NCBI GenBank assembly: GCA_027031765.1
Contig: JALVPN010000055.1
Span: 1-17,155 of the forward strand
Direction: 5' to 3'
Length of the DNA stretch: 17,155 bases
Source of the DNA: Promethearchaeota archaeon
GTDB lineage: Archaea; Asgardarchaeota; Thorarchaeia; Thorarchaeales; Thorarchaeaceae
Positions within the stretch are counted from its first letter, which is position 1; every line of letters begins with the position of its first letter. The translations under genes were made by a program, and so were the position numbers. The notes beneath the pieces are model-generated. The model was not told the origin of the DNA, did no database searches, and saw only the letters and a program-made list of their open reading frames with translations. Below, piece after piece: positions 3,692 to 16,052 of the stretch.

Positions 3692-4001
3692 CGCTTACTA
3701 CCTTCCGGGTGCCTTGACTGGACATCCACGGCGCCGGCGGTCCTCTTGGGCCCATGGAGTGTGTTGTCCAGAATGTCGAGCACAGGGAGTCCTTTTTTAC
3801 TTTATGCGAGCCGGTACCGGGGACTCCCCAAGCGGGGTCAGTACGGTCTGTGTCCGTAGTGGGGCCCGGTGTTCCACGACCGGTGCCCGTGTTGTCTTCT
3901 AGGAGGTCATTGCTGCATTCATGTCCGACCCGCCCACAGGCGCTCAATCTGCGGGTCAGCTGGTTGCATGAGGGTGGACGGGACGGGGATGCACCCTACA
4001 C

Positions 4002-4008
4002 TATTTAA
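4002..4008 (+). promoter_or_regulatory. Putative archaeal TATA box for the ABC ATPase gene
   Basis: TATTTAA in a GC-rich background, ~35 nt upstream of the GTG at 4044, with SD-like GGTGGT at 4032-4037. Confidence 0.55.
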
Positions 4009-4043
4009 CTGGCACAGTCCAGTCCCGGCATGGTGGTCAGAGC

Positions 4044-4823
4044 GTGGCAAAGCTCTCGGTACACAACATCGTCAAGTCGTATCCGGGTGAGGGTACTACC
4101 ACGGTCCGCGTCCTGGACGGTGTCAGCCTGGAGATTGAAGAGGGCGAGTTCGTGTCGCTTGTGGGCCCCTCCGGCGCCGGGAAGACCACACTGCTGAAGA
4201 TAATCGCTGGCCTCCTGCCGCCAGACTCCGGTGAGGTGCTGATTGACGGGGAAGTGGTGGGCCTAGGGCACAGCAGGGTGGGCTACATCTTTCAGCAGGA
4301 GTCCCTGTTCCCGTGGCTCACGGTGCGTGGCAACATCGCCTTCGGCCTTGAGATACGCGGGGTGCCACGTGACGGGGTTCAACGGCGGACAGACGAGATG
4401 ATTGCTCTCATCGGGATGCGTGGTCTCGAAGACCACTACCCCCACGAGATTTCTGGGGGACAGGCACGGAAGACCGAGATGGCGCGTAGCCTGGTCACCC
4501 GACCCGACATCCTGGTGGCGGATGAGGCCCTCTCCAACCTCGATGCCCAGACGCGCAACTACCTGCAGGACGAGATACTGCGCATCTGGAAGGACACGGG
4601 GGCCACAGTACTGTTTGTCACACACAATGTGGATGAGGCCGTCTACACTTCTGACCGTATCATGGTGCTGAGCAACATCCCGGCGCGTATAATTGCAGAG
4701 TTCGGGGTGGACATCCCACGGCCCAGGACGCGCACCTCTCCAGAGTGTCTGGAGTACCGGAGCAAGATCCTCGACATCTTGAGGGTCGAGCAGGAGAAGG
4801 CCATGCAGAGGATTGGGGCCTGA
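4044..4823 (+). CDS. ABC transporter ATP-binding protein, NitT/TauT (SsuB/TauB-like) family
   Basis: Walker A GPSGAGKTT, Q-loop IFQQESLFPWLTV, signature ISGGQ, Walker B ILVADE, H-loop VTHNVDEA, and the family-typical C-terminal DIPRPR. Confidence 0.93.
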   Translation: MAKLSVHNIVKSYPGEGTTTVRVLDGVSLEIEEGEFVSLVGPSGAGKTTLLKIIAGLLPPDSGEVLIDGEVVGLGHSRVGYIFQQESLFPWLTVRGNIAFGLEIRGVPRDGVQRRTDEMIALIGMRGLEDHYPHEISGGQARKTEMARSLVTRPDILVADEALSNLDAQTRNYLQDEILRIWKDTGATVLFVTHNVDEAVYTSDRIMVLSNIPARIIAEFGVDIPRPRTRTSPECLEYRSKILDILRVEQEKAMQRIGA

Positions 4824-4850
4824 CCGCCCTCGTCACATGTCCCACACTGC

Positions 4851-5690
4851 TCACACTGCGACCTCCTGCCGCCACCTCAGCAGCCGCTTCTCGCACCTTG
4901 TGAAGACTGCATTCATGAAGAAGCCAATCAGGCCAATGACGAGCATGCCCGAGATCACGCCGCCTGTCCGTCCCGCCTGTTGCATTATCAGGACAAGGTA
5001 TCCTAGGCCGAGGCCGCTGCCCACCATCTCCGCCGCGACCAGACACATCCACCCAATCCCGAAGCCGACACGCAGGCCTGCAAAGATCTCTGGTGCAGCC
5101 GATGGGATGACCACCCGCCTGAGGATCTGGAGCTCATTCGCACCGAAGGTCTTTGCCACGTCTATGTGCACAGGCTCGGTACGTCTGACACCGGCTGTCG
5201 TGTTGATGAGCAGCGGGAAGAATGCCCCGACCCATATGATGAACACCTGTGAATAGAGCAGTACGGGGCTGAACATGAGGATTGCAAGTGGAATCCATGC
5301 TATGGGGGGTATGGGGCGCATCGCTTCGACGACTGGCGTCGCAATAGAGTCTAGCACTCGATAGCGGCCCACTGCAATCCCAAGAGGGACTGCTGTCACT
5401 ATCGCCACTGTGAAGCCCAGCACCACACGGTACATGCTCAGCAACGTGTGTTCAATGAGGGTGTGCCCCTCGCTGTCACCCACAACTACGAGCCTGATGA
5501 AAGAGTCTGCAACGTCGACCAGGGTCAGGTCACCATCACTCGACACATAGACTATGACCGTCCACAGGACGAGCAGGAGGGCAAGGGCTGTCAGCCCCTT
5601 GAACACTGAGGGCCAGGGTATATGGCGTTGTGCCTGCCAGTCCTCATCCGTCTTGGCCACTGTCCTCTGTCCTTCAGTTCCGTCACTCAT
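4851..5690 (-). CDS. ABC transporter permease, NitT/TauT (SsuC/TauC-like) family
   Basis: Multiple TM segments; motifs HTLLSMYRV, RPIPPIAWIPL, an EAA-like loop (AKTFGANELQILRRVVIPSAAPEIFAGLR) and VAAEM..GLG. ATG at 5690 is preferred because the extension to 5825 reads as non-coding. Confidence 0.92.
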   Translation of the reverse strand: MSDGTEGQRTVAKTDEDWQAQRHIPWPSVFKGLTALALLLVLWTVIVYVSSDGDLTLVDVADSFIRLVVVGDSEGHTLIEHTLLSMYRVVLGFTVAIVTAVPLGIAVGRYRVLDSIATPVVEAMRPIPPIAWIPLAILMFSPVLLYSQVFIIWVGAFFPLLINTTAGVRRTEPVHIDVAKTFGANELQILRRVVIPSAAPEIFAGLRVGFGIGWMCLVAAEMVGSGLGLGYLVLIMQQAGRTGGVISGMLVIGLIGFFMNAVFTRCEKRLLRWRQEVAV

Positions 5691-5838: not shown

Positions 5839-6864
5839 CTAGCTGTCGCCGGTCACAAAAGAGGTGTTGATGAAGCCGTCGAGGAACGAGTCGACCTCGT
5901 CAGCAGTAAGACTGACCTGTCCCTCATGTATAAGGAAGCGCAGGTACACCTTGAGGGCCGTGCGGTTGAGGTTGTAGTCAAAGATGATCCGGTTGAACGC
6001 GGTGGTCACGGGAGTGGGGTCCATTTCGAGCCAGTCCACCGCGATCTGTGTGGCCTTTGTGGGGTTGTCGACAATCCACTGCTCAGCACGCTTGTGTACC
6101 TCTATGACCTTCCTGACGATGTCCGGGTGTTCGCTGAGGAACGTGTTGCTGGCAGCAACGACACAGCAGGGGTGCCGTGGCCAGATCTCCCCGGAGAGCA
6201 TGAGTGGCACCGCCTTTCCGTCGTACTCGGCTCTGGCACAGAACGGCTCCCATGCAATGAACGCTGGCGCGTCAGCAGTGAGCGAGTCCTCCATGTAGCT
6301 GACGGATGTGGTCTGGGGGGTGATGTCGTCCATGCTCATCCCTGACTGGTTGAGTGCGAGCCTCAGGAGGAATGCCTGTACTGTAGGTGGCCCCGGATAG
6401 TACACGACCTTCCCTGCAAGGTCTGCGATGCTCGTCACGTGTCCGCTGTCATACTCGGTCTTCGAGACCATGATTGCGGAGCCCTCTAGGTTCACCGCAG
6501 CGAGCAGGGTCACCATCGTGTTCTGGTTGATACGTTTGATGAGTGCTGGTGCAGCCCCCAAGTATCCCATGTCTATCTGTCCAGCCTTGAAGCCGTCCAT
6601 CTCGTAGCCACCGTTCTGGTACTGCGTCATCTGGACCTGCAGTCCTTCCTCTTCGAACCAGCCCTTTTCCACTGCGACCCGGAGGGCAAGCTGGTGGAGG
6701 TCCTGCGAGAGGTAGCCTATCCGCACGACCTGGGGCTGTCCGGTTGTCGTGGTCGTGGTCGAGTTGGTCGGGTTCAACCAGCCGCTGTACCAGACCGTCA
6801 TCAGTGCCGCAGACGCAACGATGGCGACCACAATGACCGCTATGGCCGCGTTCTTCGACTCCAT
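5839..6864 (-). CDS. ABC transporter substrate-binding protein, NitT/TauT (SsuA/NrtA/NMT1-like), with N-terminal membrane anchor
   Basis: N-terminal hydrophobic helix, Thr-rich linker, VRIGYL...A.EKGWFEEEGL, G.IDMGYLGAAP, AFIAWEPF and W..HPCCVV. SD-like GTGAGGA upstream of the ATG. Confidence 0.92.
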   Translation of the reverse strand: MESKNAAIAVIVVAIVASAALMTVWYSGWLNPTNSTTTTTTGQPQVVRIGYLSQDLHQLALRVAVEKGWFEEEGLQVQMTQYQNGGYEMDGFKAGQIDMGYLGAAPALIKRINQNTMVTLLAAVNLEGSAIMVSKTEYDSGHVTSIADLAGKVVYYPGPPTVQAFLLRLALNQSGMSMDDITPQTTSVSYMEDSLTADAPAFIAWEPFCARAEYDGKAVPLMLSGEIWPRHPCCVVAASNTFLSEHPDIVRKVIEVHKRAEQWIVDNPTKATQIAVDWLEMDPTPVTTAFNRIIFDYNLNRTALKVYLRFLIHEGQVSLTADEVDSFLDGFINTSFVTGDS

Positions 6865-6976
6865 TTGCTAGTCCTCACAGGTCGGTCGTCGTTCACGTCT
6901 TTAGATATTTGCGATAGGGCCGCAGACCATACGCATCAGTCAAGTTGATTAGCCACGGAGTCGCTCAACCGCAGAC

Positions 6977-7351
6977 ATGACCCTCCGTGACAGGATTCCT
7001 GAACAGCTACGAATTGGTGACGCGTTGATCTCCATTGTCATGGAAGAGGAGGTCTCCGTCTTTCCCACCAGCGACTACATCCTTGTTGAGGGCTCGCCGA
7101 AGGTCGGCAAGATCAATGTGCCGAAGATTGCATCCACACTACGAAACCTCGTAAAGAATGACCGGAGGATGGTCGCCCTCCGTGGGTACGGGTTCCGGGG
7201 GATTGGTCTTGCTGTACGCATTGCTCACGAGCTCAAGAAGCGCGAGAGCCGCTTCGTCTATCAGATGACCTTCGACACGTTCGATGCGTTGGAGCCGGAG
7301 GAGGACAAAGTGTTGACGAGCATCCAGATTGTCGTGATGCCACCCGAGTGA
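6977..7351 (+). CDS. Alba-fold nucleic-acid-binding protein (divergent), with N-terminal extension
   Basis: The inferred beta-alpha-beta-alpha-beta-beta pattern (YILV / VPKIASTLRNLV / MVALRGYG / GIGLAVRIAHELKK / VYQMTFDT / TSIQIVVM) parallels the Alba pattern IVIKARGRAISKAV...VSTIEI. Confidence 0.65.
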   Translation: MTLRDRIPEQLRIGDALISIVMEEEVSVFPTSDYILVEGSPKVGKINVPKIASTLRNLVKNDRRMVALRGYGFRGIGLAVRIAHELKKRESRFVYQMTFDTFDALEPEEDKVLTSIQIVVMPPE

Positions 7352-13341: not shown

Positions 13342-13423
13342 TGTGCCAACGAGTGAAGTTCTCCTAGAGTTCCGTGGACTACCGCATGACGGGACTTCAG
13401 AACAGAGCTGGAGAATGGTTTTC

Positions 13424-13558
13424 ATGACATGTCCAGACTACAATGCAGCTGAGAACAAGTGTGGTGTTGATGGCTTCAAGTTCTATGAGGGGATGGAAAA
13501 GCCCTGTGATACACCTGGGATTACAAGGGAAAAATGCCCACGCTTCGCAATGAAGTAG
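13424..13558 (+). CDS. Small (44 aa) four-cysteine protein of unknown function, possibly metal-binding
   Basis: MTCPDY-NAAENK-C-x14-C-x9-CPRF. GGAGA at 13410-13414, alternative ATG at 13415, protein-like composition and its own TATA candidate. Confidence 0.65.
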   Translation: MTCPDYNAAENKCGVDGFKFYEGMEKPCDTPGITREKCPRFAMK

Positions 13559-13773: not shown

Positions 13774-14040
13774 ATGGTCAAGGCCTACATCCTGATCAAG
13801 ACTGAAAGTGGCAAGGAGGACGAGGTACTGAAGACGCTCCTCCGGATGTCGGTCACGGAGGAGGCCCATGCGGTCTTTGGTCCCTTTGACATTATCGCGG
13901 AAGTGCGGGCCCGTGACATGGACAGCATAGTTGAGATAGTGCTGTCCAAGATCCGACGGATTTCTGGTATCACCGATACCCAGTCACTGATTGCTGTAGA
14001 TGCTGAGATCGACATGAGCTCCTCGGGTCTCGCGTCATAG
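13774..14040 (+). CDS. Stand-alone Lrp/AsnC ligand-binding (RAM) domain protein without an HTH
   Basis: KAYILIKTESGKEDEV...EAHAVFGPFDIIAEV...IRRISGITDTQSLI. SD AGGTGA at 13761-13766. Confidence 0.9.
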   Translation: MVKAYILIKTESGKEDEVLKTLLRMSVTEEAHAVFGPFDIIAEVRARDMDSIVEIVLSKIRRISGITDTQSLIAVDAEIDMSSSGLAS

Positions 14041-14144: not shown

Positions 14145-14192
14145 GGGACTGTGACAACCCCATTGTTGACCAATGATAAGGAGGTCATCGGG

Positions 14193-14996
14193 ATTTCCCC
14201 CGTAAAGACGCTGTCACGACAACCGTTCATGCTCATGTTGCAGGATGACTCTGGTGAGTTGACCCCAGTCCGACTGGACCCGGCCCTTGTGCGTAGTGAC
14301 ACTGCAATCATCGTTCTTGACGAGTATAGCGACACCTGTTGGGTCTGGGTTGGTAGGGACGTGAACATGCCGACCAGGATGCACGCCCTCCGTATGGGGC
14401 ACGCCCTACAGCGGTCAGGCTTCAAGGTCGGTGTCACCACGATTGGCATGGCATCCTCACGCCTCGTTGAGATTCTGGAGAAGGATGCCAGTGACCCAGA
14501 AGTTGCAGCCAACATCGAGGCCTTCAAGAGTGCCCTCCAGGGTAGGTGGAAGTTTGAGGACGATGTCCTCGCGTACGACGAGTCAAGAGTACCTGGTGAG
14601 GCGCCAGTCCCAACCACACCCACTGTTGCCCCATCGTACGAGGCGCCCGCACCGGCACCGAGTGCCACCACGCCCGCAGCGGCTGAGCCCGTGACCTATG
14701 AGGAGCCTGCCCCAAGGCCCGTCCCACAGGTGACACCGCCCGCAGAGGTCCAGGGCGGCGCCATGATGAAGACGGCGTATCTCCTCTACTCGATAGCCAT
14801 GAACACCGACCTAGTGTACACTGAGCGGTTCGAGCGCAATGGCAGGACCGGTCTCAAAGTGGAGGTCCCCGGTATCATGGTCATCGAGGCCACCATCGAC
14901 GGCGACAACCTGCGGATCACCCCGCCACACTTTGGTGACGGTGAGGAGGCCGCTAGGATCAGGGCGGAGTACGAGCGTCTGACGCGAGGACTGTGA
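14193..14996 (+). CDS. Gelsolin/villin-like domain protein with Pro/Ala/Thr-rich linker and C-terminal alpha/beta domain of unknown function (start uncertain)
   Basis: LVRSDTAIIVLDEYSDTCWVWVGRDVNMPTRMHALRMGHAL fits the gelsolin-repeat core L.S.D.FILD...IxVWxG...S...E+..A...A. Start candidates: GTG 14151, TTG 14163/14166, ATT 14193 (best SD spacing) and ATG 14229. Confidence 0.75.
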   Translation: MSPVKTLSRQPFMLMLQDDSGELTPVRLDPALVRSDTAIIVLDEYSDTCWVWVGRDVNMPTRMHALRMGHALQRSGFKVGVTTIGMASSRLVEILEKDASDPEVAANIEAFKSALQGRWKFEDDVLAYDESRVPGEAPVPTTPTVAPSYEAPAPAPSATTPAAAEPVTYEEPAPRPVPQVTPPAEVQGGAMMKTAYLLYSIAMNTDLVYTERFERNGRTGLKVEVPGIMVIEATIDGDNLRITPPHFGDGEEAARIRAEYERLTRGL

Positions 14997-15132: not shown

Positions 15133-15927
15133 CTACTGGTGGATAGCCTTGGCATCGTACTGACCCACAGGGTCGTCGTGAGTTGGTAGGTACCTGTACC
15201 AGTACTCGTACTCGGGTACAAAGCCCAGTCTGTGGTAGAGTGCCCGTGCCGGGCTATTGTTCACTTCTACTTGGAGATACGCACCCTGAGCGCCATGCCG
15301 TCTCGCCCACTGTGCAATCCCATGGCTGAGCGCCGTGGCCAGTCCACGCCTCCTGAACTCCTTCCGGGTCACCACCCCAAATATACCGGCCCATCCGTCC
15401 TGCACAACACCGATGCCCACTGAAGCCACCTCGCCGTCGCACCTGACACTTGCAAAGACATGTGGTGTCGGGATGCGTGCCATGATCTCGCGTCGTACGC
15501 GCAGGGAGAACTCGTCGTAGCCGCCACCGAGCCGGTACGCTTCGACCCACTGGTCAAGTGGTGTGTCGTCAGTACTAACAGGGAACTCGGGCTCCTGTGC
15601 AAGTCTGTCCATCGGGGCCGTTTCAACGGCCACCCGGAGCCCGATGTGGAACCCATGTTGCTCAAGGACGGTGTCAAGGCCCTGCGGACGGCTGGCATGT
15701 GTCATCTGGAACCTAGGTGCGAGTCGGCGTGATGTGTAGAACTCTATCACATGCTGGACTGCGTCGTCCACGTCTATCCCGGGGTCGTCACATGGGAGGA
15801 CACTGTTGGCCCTCCGTGTCACGCCATCAGTTGCACGTAGGAGCCAGCCACCGAGGCGTTCCACCTCTCCTGCCGGCCACGACCTCGCGGCAATCCTCTC
15901 AAGCATGGTCGTCCTGTCAGCACCCAT
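15133..15927 (-). CDS. GNAT-family N-acetyltransferase (N-terminal GNAT-like region plus C-terminal catalytic GNAT)
   Basis: SWPA...LGGWLLRA..G.TRRANSV N-terminal motif, acetyl-CoA motif A VVTRKEFRRRGLATAL, and LQVEVNNSPARALYHRLGF. ATG 15927 has GAAGGGGG upstream. Confidence 0.9.
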   Translation of the reverse strand: MGADRTTMLERIAARSWPAGEVERLGGWLLRATDGVTRRANSVLPCDDPGIDVDDAVQHVIEFYTSRRLAPRFQMTHASRPQGLDTVLEQHGFHIGLRVAVETAPMDRLAQEPEFPVSTDDTPLDQWVEAYRLGGGYDEFSLRVRREIMARIPTPHVFASVRCDGEVASVGIGVVQDGWAGIFGVVTRKEFRRRGLATALSHGIAQWARRHGAQGAYLQVEVNNSPARALYHRLGFVPEYEYWYRYLPTHDDPVGQYDAKAIHQ

Positions 15928-16052
15928 GTCTGCCCCCTTCACACAGGCCCCTACTCAAAAAGCTTCTGAAGGCAAAACAAGCACATATTTCAGGCCGCCA
16001 CATGACTTGCAGGTGTGTACCTGTATCAGTCACAGATGCGGGGTGATAAGGT

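Follow-up and report, generated by a model that had tools for sequence, protein, structure and literature searches.

To our knowledge, the Asgard actin regulators studied so far are limited to profilins, ProGel, 1DGelX and 2DGel, the last of which is patchily distributed. ProGel, 1DGelX and 2DGel were defined by Akil et al. 2020 (PMC7444086), who found the gelsolin domain of 1DGelX to be 35–47% identical to ProGel and showed that 1DGelX acts on actin without calcium. Here, we describe a gene on the plus strand (14193–14996) of a 17,155-nucleotide stretch of Promethearchaeota archaeon DNA (contig JALVPN010000055.1; the whole stretch is called the window below). Its product, about 267 residues long, is an acidic cytoplasmic protein, in which an N-terminal gelsolin-homology domain (N-domain) is joined by a disordered proline-rich linker to a folded C-terminal domain (C-domain). 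The window gene represents Thorarchaeota in a pan-Asgard subfamily of gelsolin-homology proteins, so far uncharacterised biochemically, which we refer to as the B35_Gel2-type family. The host genome also encodes an actin and canonical gelsolins. In a search of sequencing runs, the sequence turned up solely in a DNA sample from a hydrothermal vent, its probable source, and in no RNA run.

The layout of the window protein resembles that of 1DGelX, in which one gelsolin-homology domain is likewise followed by a linker rich in proline and by an additional alpha/beta domain at the C-terminus. The 1DGelX gelsolin domain is close to ProGel, however, whereas the identity of the window N-domain to ProGel is 15–18%. 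ProGel itself (PDB 7C2F) consists of the domain alone, about 90 residues long; the window protein has an insertion, a hairpin, the linker and the C-domain in addition. With Asgard 2DGel and eukaryotic gelsolin, villin and fragmin, the window protein has the gelsolin fold and the WxG motif in common, but these proteins contain between two and six gelsolin domains, which bear calcium sites of types I and II, whereas the window protein has one domain and carries a Thr in place of the calcium-site Glu.

The fold class, the ‘one gelsolin domain plus something’ layout and the existence of the Lokiarchaeum member, which is listed in a preprint, are already known. What appears to be new is the pan-Asgard range of the family, the connection drawn from the Thor family to the Lokiactin pull-down, the folded C-domain for which no fold relative was found, the conserved linker motif, the missing calcium site and the ATT start.

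Architecture and homology of the window protein

The AlphaFold2 model of the full protein, based on 37 homologues, has a mean predicted local distance difference test (pLDDT) score of 83 and resolves the parts given below, with residue numbers counted from the TTG at 14166 here and throughout (e.g. T70, R76, E233).

14226–14576, plus strand: N-terminal gelsolin-homology domain, folded over residues 21–137; the gelsolin core aligns over residues 21–125 (14226–14540) and is followed, up to 14576, by a family-specific conserved beta-hairpin (W-x-F-x-D..L-A-Y)
14367–14417, plus strand: long helix of the gelsolin fold in the model, residues 68–84, the most conserved stretch of the family
14583–14753, plus strand: disordered Pro/Ala/Thr/Glu linker of about 57–60 residues, 27% Pro, with low confidence over residues 140–196 (pLDDT 41–64)
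14634–14660, plus strand: first YE-x-PAP copy, SYEAPAPAP, a local, non-conserved duplication
14676–14720, plus strand: second copy, TYEEPAPRP (14694–14720), with the preceding AAAEPV; the window's version of the family-conserved linker motif
14757–14993, plus strand: C-terminal alpha-beta4-alpha domain of about 79 residues and no recognised family, modelled as a compact unit of helix, four strands and helix over residues 198–273 (14757–14984)

An earlier note on this DNA, made from the sequence alone, had proposed a gelsolin domain joined to a C-terminal domain through a linker rich in proline, and all three parts are found within a few codons of where it had placed them.

In the model, the N-domain has a gelsolin fold, in which two helices, a long and a short one, pack onto a mixed sheet at the centre. 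Compared with ProGel, it contains a 14-residue insertion past the conserved Gly in addition to the conserved beta-hairpin. The best match of the N-domain in a Foldseek search of the PDB is the Thorarchaeota ProGel–actin complex (7c2f_B, expectation value (E) 2.7e-4, template modelling (TM) score 0.79 by target). The family profile matches the gelsolin domain of the published Thor 1DGelX (hhalign 97.6%, E 2.6e-12), as well as the 1DGelX gene of the window's own genome (E 5.5e-11), and the residues of the WxG signature (W61, G63) are invariant in an alignment with ProGel-like, 1DGelX and 2DGel domains. The identity of the N-domain to the ProGel-like and 1DGelX domains of its own genome is 16–19%. 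In sequence searches of the PDB, the single protein gave nothing meaningful, the only match being a linker-driven one to Arp4 (E 0.3), and the family profile gave no match. The earlier note's gelsolin-like N-domain is thus borne out by a structure match to ProGel and by profile homology to the characterised 1DGelX domain, rather than giving way to some other fold, and we hold its homology to gelsolin to be very probable.

The C-domain, folded alone with a 42-sequence pan-Asgard alignment, has a pLDDT of 95.8 and a predicted TM score of 0.85. Foldseek found no significant match to it in the PDB (best E 0.26), and in the ESM Atlas only its own family was retrieved (TM 0.96), all other entries scoring a TM of 0.57 or less; the label ‘unrecognised’, which this domain had received in the earlier note, remains appropriate. 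E233 in the second strand is nearly invariant, and in Thor-type proteins alternating positions of the first two strands are taken by several conserved residues with charged or aromatic side chains, a pattern that may delineate an exposed functional face of the sheet. The median net charge and isoelectric point (pI) of the domain are −2 and 5.05 in Thor-type proteins, and 0 and 6.8 in Loki-type proteins. The two-layer alpha/beta sandwiches to which the C-domain bears some resemblance, namely the phosphoglucomutase C-terminal domain, the RNase H3 N-domain and KA1, reach background-level scores at 7–16% identity and have a different surface charge, and no family assignment is justified from these resemblances.

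The N- and C-domains remain coupled in variant proteins of 427 and 525 residues. The longer of these (P0144) comprises two gelsolin-type domains of the B35_Gel2-type subfamily, a helical region and the C-domain. The shorter one (P0181) is extended at its N-terminus by an acidic, proline-rich segment, and a helical spacer replaces its proline-rich linker. Stand-alone C-domains were considered and rejected, as the short C-domain-only matches look like truncated or chimeric gene calls.

The linker of Thor homologues spans 48–114 residues (median 62) and contains on average 24% Pro. In the window protein, its only two Tyr residues belong to the two YE-x-PAP copies. The duplication pointed out in the earlier note is real in that both copies are present, but it is not a family feature: YE-x-P is found in 28 of 120 Thor homologues, where it mostly forms part of Y-[DE]-E-P-I-A-G-A-P-K-P-K repeats in one to three copies. 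A Thor-type linker motif, h-h-A-E-T-V-x-E-E-P, is present in 82 of the 120 homologues about 95–105 residues from the C-terminus. The Loki-type linker motif is [AG]-S-E-Y-[DE]-x-x-E-P, with S-E-Y occurring in 114 of 121 sequences and mostly 108 residues from the C-terminus. Only the second copy of the window protein (AAAEPV-TYEEP) overlaps the family-conserved motif; the first does not. This conserved motif keeps a fixed distance from the C-domain and is a candidate short linear binding motif. A longer form, [AG]-S-E-Y-[DE]-x-x-E-P-[ML]-P-S-I-K, is seen in the Loki-type sequences P0201–P0320, in which the S-E-Y core is invariant within an otherwise variable linker.

Distribution of the family and its Lokiarchaeum member

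At E ≤ 1e-3, the family comprises at least 247 homologues, and those that have been named are all ‘hypothetical’. The 120 homologues listed are 46–59% identical to the window protein, carry almost entirely Thorarchaeota or Promethearchaeota names and conserve both folded domains. An exhaustive HMMER search yielded distant full-length relatives (20–37% identity) of the same three-part layout, the records of which include Odinarchaeia, Hodarchaeota, Freyarchaeota and Ranarchaeia. Proteins assigned to the B35_Gel2-type family match over their full length, that is, over the gelsolin-homology N-domain, the disordered linker and the 80-residue C-domain.

A profile built from the broad alignment was run against the phylum's genomes with a completeness of 85% or more, 268 in all; at E ≤ 1e-5 it matched 225 of them, about 204 strongly (E ≤ 1e-15). 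Every one of the 57 genomes of the window's own (Thor) family contains a match, as do 103 of the 106 in the largest Loki-type family. A B35_Gel2-type protein is missing from most genomes in three families of the phylum, which have matches in 4 of 21, 3 of 15 and 0 of 5. Weak matches, of which there are 21, probably stem from other gelsolin paralogues; the profile also reaches the 1DGelX gene of the window's genome at the E value given above. Each of the three genomes that were checked individually (the window's genome, L. ossiferum and MK-D1) contains one strong match. About three in four Asgard genomes of good quality encode a member of the family, which goes undetected by domain databases. 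Two short open reading frames (ORFs) of the window's genome, C115:21493-21630 (minus strand, E 1.2e-6) and C186:4949-5047 (plus strand, E 1.5e-3), match the family profile weakly and may represent further small gelsolin-like genes.

The L. ossiferum member matches the family profile in both domains, with E 1e-58 in the N-domain and 5.9e-21 in the C-domain. Counted from its ATG, it has 240 residues and a mass of 26.59 kDa, and an exact look-up identified it as UYP48324.1. It belongs to the same family as the window protein, with the same three-part layout and one copy per genome, but its linker is shorter and bears the S-E-Y motif. UYP48324.1 is the protein called B35_Gel2 in supplementary table 3 of a recent preprint (bioRxiv 10.1101/2025.11.30.690169). 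In the co-immunoprecipitation described there, which compared an anti-Lokiactin antibody with immunoglobulin G, B35_Gel2 was represented by 19 peptides (68.3% coverage) and 241 spectra, the most of the five gelsolin-homology proteins in the pull-down, and was enriched with a log2 ratio of 2.58 (P 6.4e-5, adjusted P 0.0028; bioRxiv 10.1101/2025.11.30.690169). B35_Gel2 is presented in this preprint as one gelsolin-homology domain with a disordered region, its role being left open, and its folded C-domain is not described (bioRxiv 10.1101/2025.11.30.690169).

Proposed actin regulation and its alternatives

We regard it as reasonably probable that the window protein is an actin-binding regulator, which engages actin through the helix of its gelsolin fold without calcium control and to which the tethered C-domain adds a second contact. 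In favour of this reading are the profile homology of the N-domain to 1DGelX, the enrichment of B35_Gel2 with Lokiactin as an indirect sign of actin association, the wide conservation of the family, the persistent pairing of its two domains and the actin and canonical gelsolins of the host. By analogy with the gelsolin G1 and ProGel complexes, the long helix (residues 68–84) is the expected actin-contact helix. M68, P69, T70, M72, H73 and R76 of this helix are invariant in Thor-type members, and across Asgard, R76 is invariant while R72 and A74 are nearly so. The N-domain would bind actin through this highly conserved helix, as ProGel and gelsolin G1 do. A flexible, proline-rich tether of 48–114 residues, which bears one conserved acidic motif, links it to the C-domain, and the latter could supply a second contact to the side of the filament, to a second copy of itself or to another partner. 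This second contact might make a filament regulator out of a protein that would otherwise bind actin weakly through a single domain, as has been proposed for domain X, the C-terminal domain of 1DGelX. The earlier note had likewise proposed an actin regulator coupled to a second binding module; for the C-domain, neither a partner nor a fold relative nor a conserved neighbour was found.

The type II calcium site of gelsolin domains is formed by an Asp after the central strand and by a Glu where the long helix starts, seven residues past the Gly of the WxG motif. In the window protein, the Asp is present (D52), and the Glu position is occupied by Thr70, a residue found in all Thor-type members; Val, Ala or Gln occupies it in the Loki- and Odin-type sequences shown. 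The 2DGel of the same genome has a Glu at this position in both of its domains. 1DGelX likewise lacks the type II Glu. Since the Glu is missing here as it is in the calcium-independent 1DGelX, no calcium control of the actin interaction would be expected, and the window protein is predicted to act independently of calcium.

Several observations weigh against this proposal. The identity of the N-domain to ProGel is low, and so is that to B35_Gel2 (26% over 135 aligned N-terminal residues), the protein that provides the link to actin. The co-immunoprecipitation of B35_Gel2 can be indirect and comes from a preprint. No conserved neighbour that would tie the gene to the cytoskeleton is found among the Thor and Loki-type loci. 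A Pfam scan of the window protein, finally, returned no family at E ≤ 0.1, including Gelsolin (PF00626), and the window gene is not among the PF00626 matches of its genome; this counts only weakly, because the same model also misses proteins of the 1DGelX type.

The gelsolin fold need not signify actin binding, as a gelsolin-like domain is also present in Sec23/24. The N-domain could accordingly serve a non-actin purpose, such as that of a protein-interaction module in a trafficking or coat-like system, in which case the co-purification of the orthologue with actin would be indirect. Low identity to actin-binding gelsolins would fit such a role, as would the 14-residue insertion and the extra hairpin relative to ProGel, and an Arf GTPase was enriched in the Lokiactin co-immunoprecipitation as well (bioRxiv 10.1101/2025.11.30.690169). 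The profile homology of the N-domain to an experimentally actin-active domain and the top spectral count of the orthologue among the five gelsolin-homology proteins of the pull-down, however, argue for an actin-related function and render the non-actin use rather improbable. The C-domain, in turn, might be a module of the KA1 type, which would tether the actin-binding domain to the membrane by binding acidic lipids there. KA1 lipid binding requires a basic surface, whereas the C-domain is acidic to neutral by the median values given above, and KA1 possesses an extra N-terminal strand. A lipid-binding role of this kind is very improbable and was set aside on account of a weak Z score and the charge of the domain.

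The remaining alternatives concern 1DGelX. As a label, this name would suit the window protein, which consists of one gelsolin domain plus an unknown one, and Akil et al. 2022 counted ‘two 1DGelXs’ in MK-D1; the loose class label may already cover the B35_Gel2-type family informally. That the window protein simply is the published and characterised Thor 1DGelX is nevertheless close to untenable. BLASTP detects no similarity between the latter (KXH72031.1, P0407, 304 residues) and the window protein, and hhalign finds no detectable similarity between the C-domain and domain X (0.8% and 0.5–1%). Domain X has about 120 residues and ends in an invariant K-L-V-A-K, whereas the C-domain has about 80 and lacks this sequence. 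The window's genome carries a 1DGelX orthologue of its own on contig C1, where it is cut by the contig end (L005:3-509, minus strand), and the gelsolin domain of this orthologue is 36–44% identical to the two small ProGel-like genes of the genome. Both families are also present in the Thor assembly SMTZ1-45, as KXH72396.1 (B35_Gel2 type) and KXH74947.1 (1DGelX type). Identity with 1DGelX was therefore rejected, and the window gene represents a further, more divergent paralogue, the C-domain of which is unlike the only characterised extension of an Asgard single-gelsolin protein. A less direct version of the same idea, that the window protein is an ancient paralogue of 1DGelX whose C-domain is a diverged and shortened domain X with the same activity (nucleating at low dose and severing at high dose, independently of calcium), is unlikely, although it has more in its favour. 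In both proteins a gelsolin domain and a proline-rich linker precede a C-terminal alpha/beta domain with a helix at each end, and the gelsolin domains are profile homologues. Two independent hhalign runs aligned the C-terminal domains in the same register (strand, D-G turn, strand), without significance, and in ESM feature space the two have two of their nearest clusters in common, at a noise-level score of 0.80. Against this stand the hhalign probability of 0.5–1.0%, the BLASTP result, the difference in length and the absent K-L-V-A-K tail. Furthermore, domain X occurs only in Thor-type proteins among the 120 matches listed, whereas the C-domain type of the window protein is pan-Asgard. A remote relationship to domain X would be compatible with the actin regulation proposed above.

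If the window protein is a direct actin regulator, the family would be a core, probably ancestral component of the Asgard actin system, and its C-domain and linker motif would offer new handles on what the Asgard actin network connects to. It is also possible, though doubtful, that the family is the most widely conserved Asgard actin accessory protein and that the C-domain and the acidic linker motif make up a new module, which couples filaments to a partner new to the Asgard cytoskeleton. Were this so, the protein would be a prokaryotic precursor of the eukaryotic design of actin-binding domain, tether and adaptor domain.

Two features of the 1DGelX proteins themselves were also observed. Domain X is extremely conserved in full-length relatives (L097–L105 and P0407), mostly at 80% or more. 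Its K-L-V-A-K tail is basic and resembles actin-binding motifs of the WH2/LKKV type, a resemblance that is unmentioned in the 1DGelX papers cited here. The 2DGel of the window's genome lies near the actin gene on contig C97: the actin gene (379 residues) occupies 3810–4946 on the plus strand, and 2DGel 6745–7266 on the minus strand, about 1.8 kb away.

Start codon and gene neighbourhood

The reading frame of the window gene is open on the plus strand from 14043 to the TGA at 14994–14996. The public gene call starts at the TTG at 14166 and gives a product of 276 residues, whereas a start at the ATT at 14193, assumed in the earlier note, gives a protein of 267 residues with a mass of 29.2 kDa and a pI of 4.8. 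The elements that bear on the choice are as follows.

14179–14186, plus strand: Shine-Dalgarno-like sequence AAGGAGGT, 6 nucleotides before the ATT at 14193; GGAGG-type motifs occur at the equivalent site in 17 orthologous loci
14193–14195, plus strand: probable ATT start codon, from the comparison with orthologues; the alternatives are the TTG at 14166 (public call) and the ATG at 14229
14994–14996, plus strand: TGA stop codon, read from the sequence

In most of the 17 orthologous Thor-type loci that were compared, an ATG is found at or adjacent to the position equivalent to 14193, with a GGAGG-type motif ahead of it. Three of the loci (L149, L151 and L156/L136) contain an in-frame stop 6–9 codons upstream of the conserved peptide I-P/S-x-K-x-L-S-R-K-P-F, and there is no ATG, GTG or TTG between this stop and the peptide; where other orthologues have their ATG, these three have an ATT, 7–8 nucleotides past the GGAGG motif. 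Across the N-terminal codons, all five differences between L156 and L138 are synonymous, which indicates that this stretch is translated. The alignment of ATG and ATT codons among orthologues, the GGAGG-type motif and the spacing of AAGGAGGT led us to take 14193 as the start, and translation likely begins at this ATT, as the earlier note had supposed. The matter is relevant to annotation, as the public gene starts of the family are misplaced in several genomes.

Initiation at an ATT located 6–10 nucleotides past a GGAGG-type motif is apparent in a subset of Thorarchaeota (L149, L151, L156/L136, L138 and L150), and sister genomes carry an ATG where these orthologues carry the ATT. As a result of the ATT starts, public calls begin either too early (the TTG at 14166 here) or too late (at a downstream ATG in L136).

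The window gene is flanked by the following genes.

13774–14040, plus strand, upstream: stand-alone Lrp/AsnC ligand-binding-domain protein of 88 residues (PF01037, E 1.2e-14)
15133–15942, minus strand, downstream and convergent: GNAT acetyltransferase of the Rv0428c_C type (PF24553, E 1.6e-29)

The AsnC-domain gene adjoins the family gene in two other Thor contigs and is absent from the 83 Loki-type loci, in which a DNA ligase neighbours the gene in 80 cases and an aminotransferase in 74. The synteny with the AsnC-domain and GNAT genes is confined to Thorarchaeota, and since Thor-type and Loki-type loci have no neighbour in common, synteny provides no clue to function. Within Thorarchaeota, the order of AsnC-domain gene, family gene and convergent GNAT gene is kept where the proteins are only about 55% identical (e.g. 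in L136). Upstream of the AsnC-domain gene, a Cys-containing ORF of 71 codons (13343–13558, plus strand) has no Pfam match and shows 80% identity over 41 residues to its counterpart in L136.
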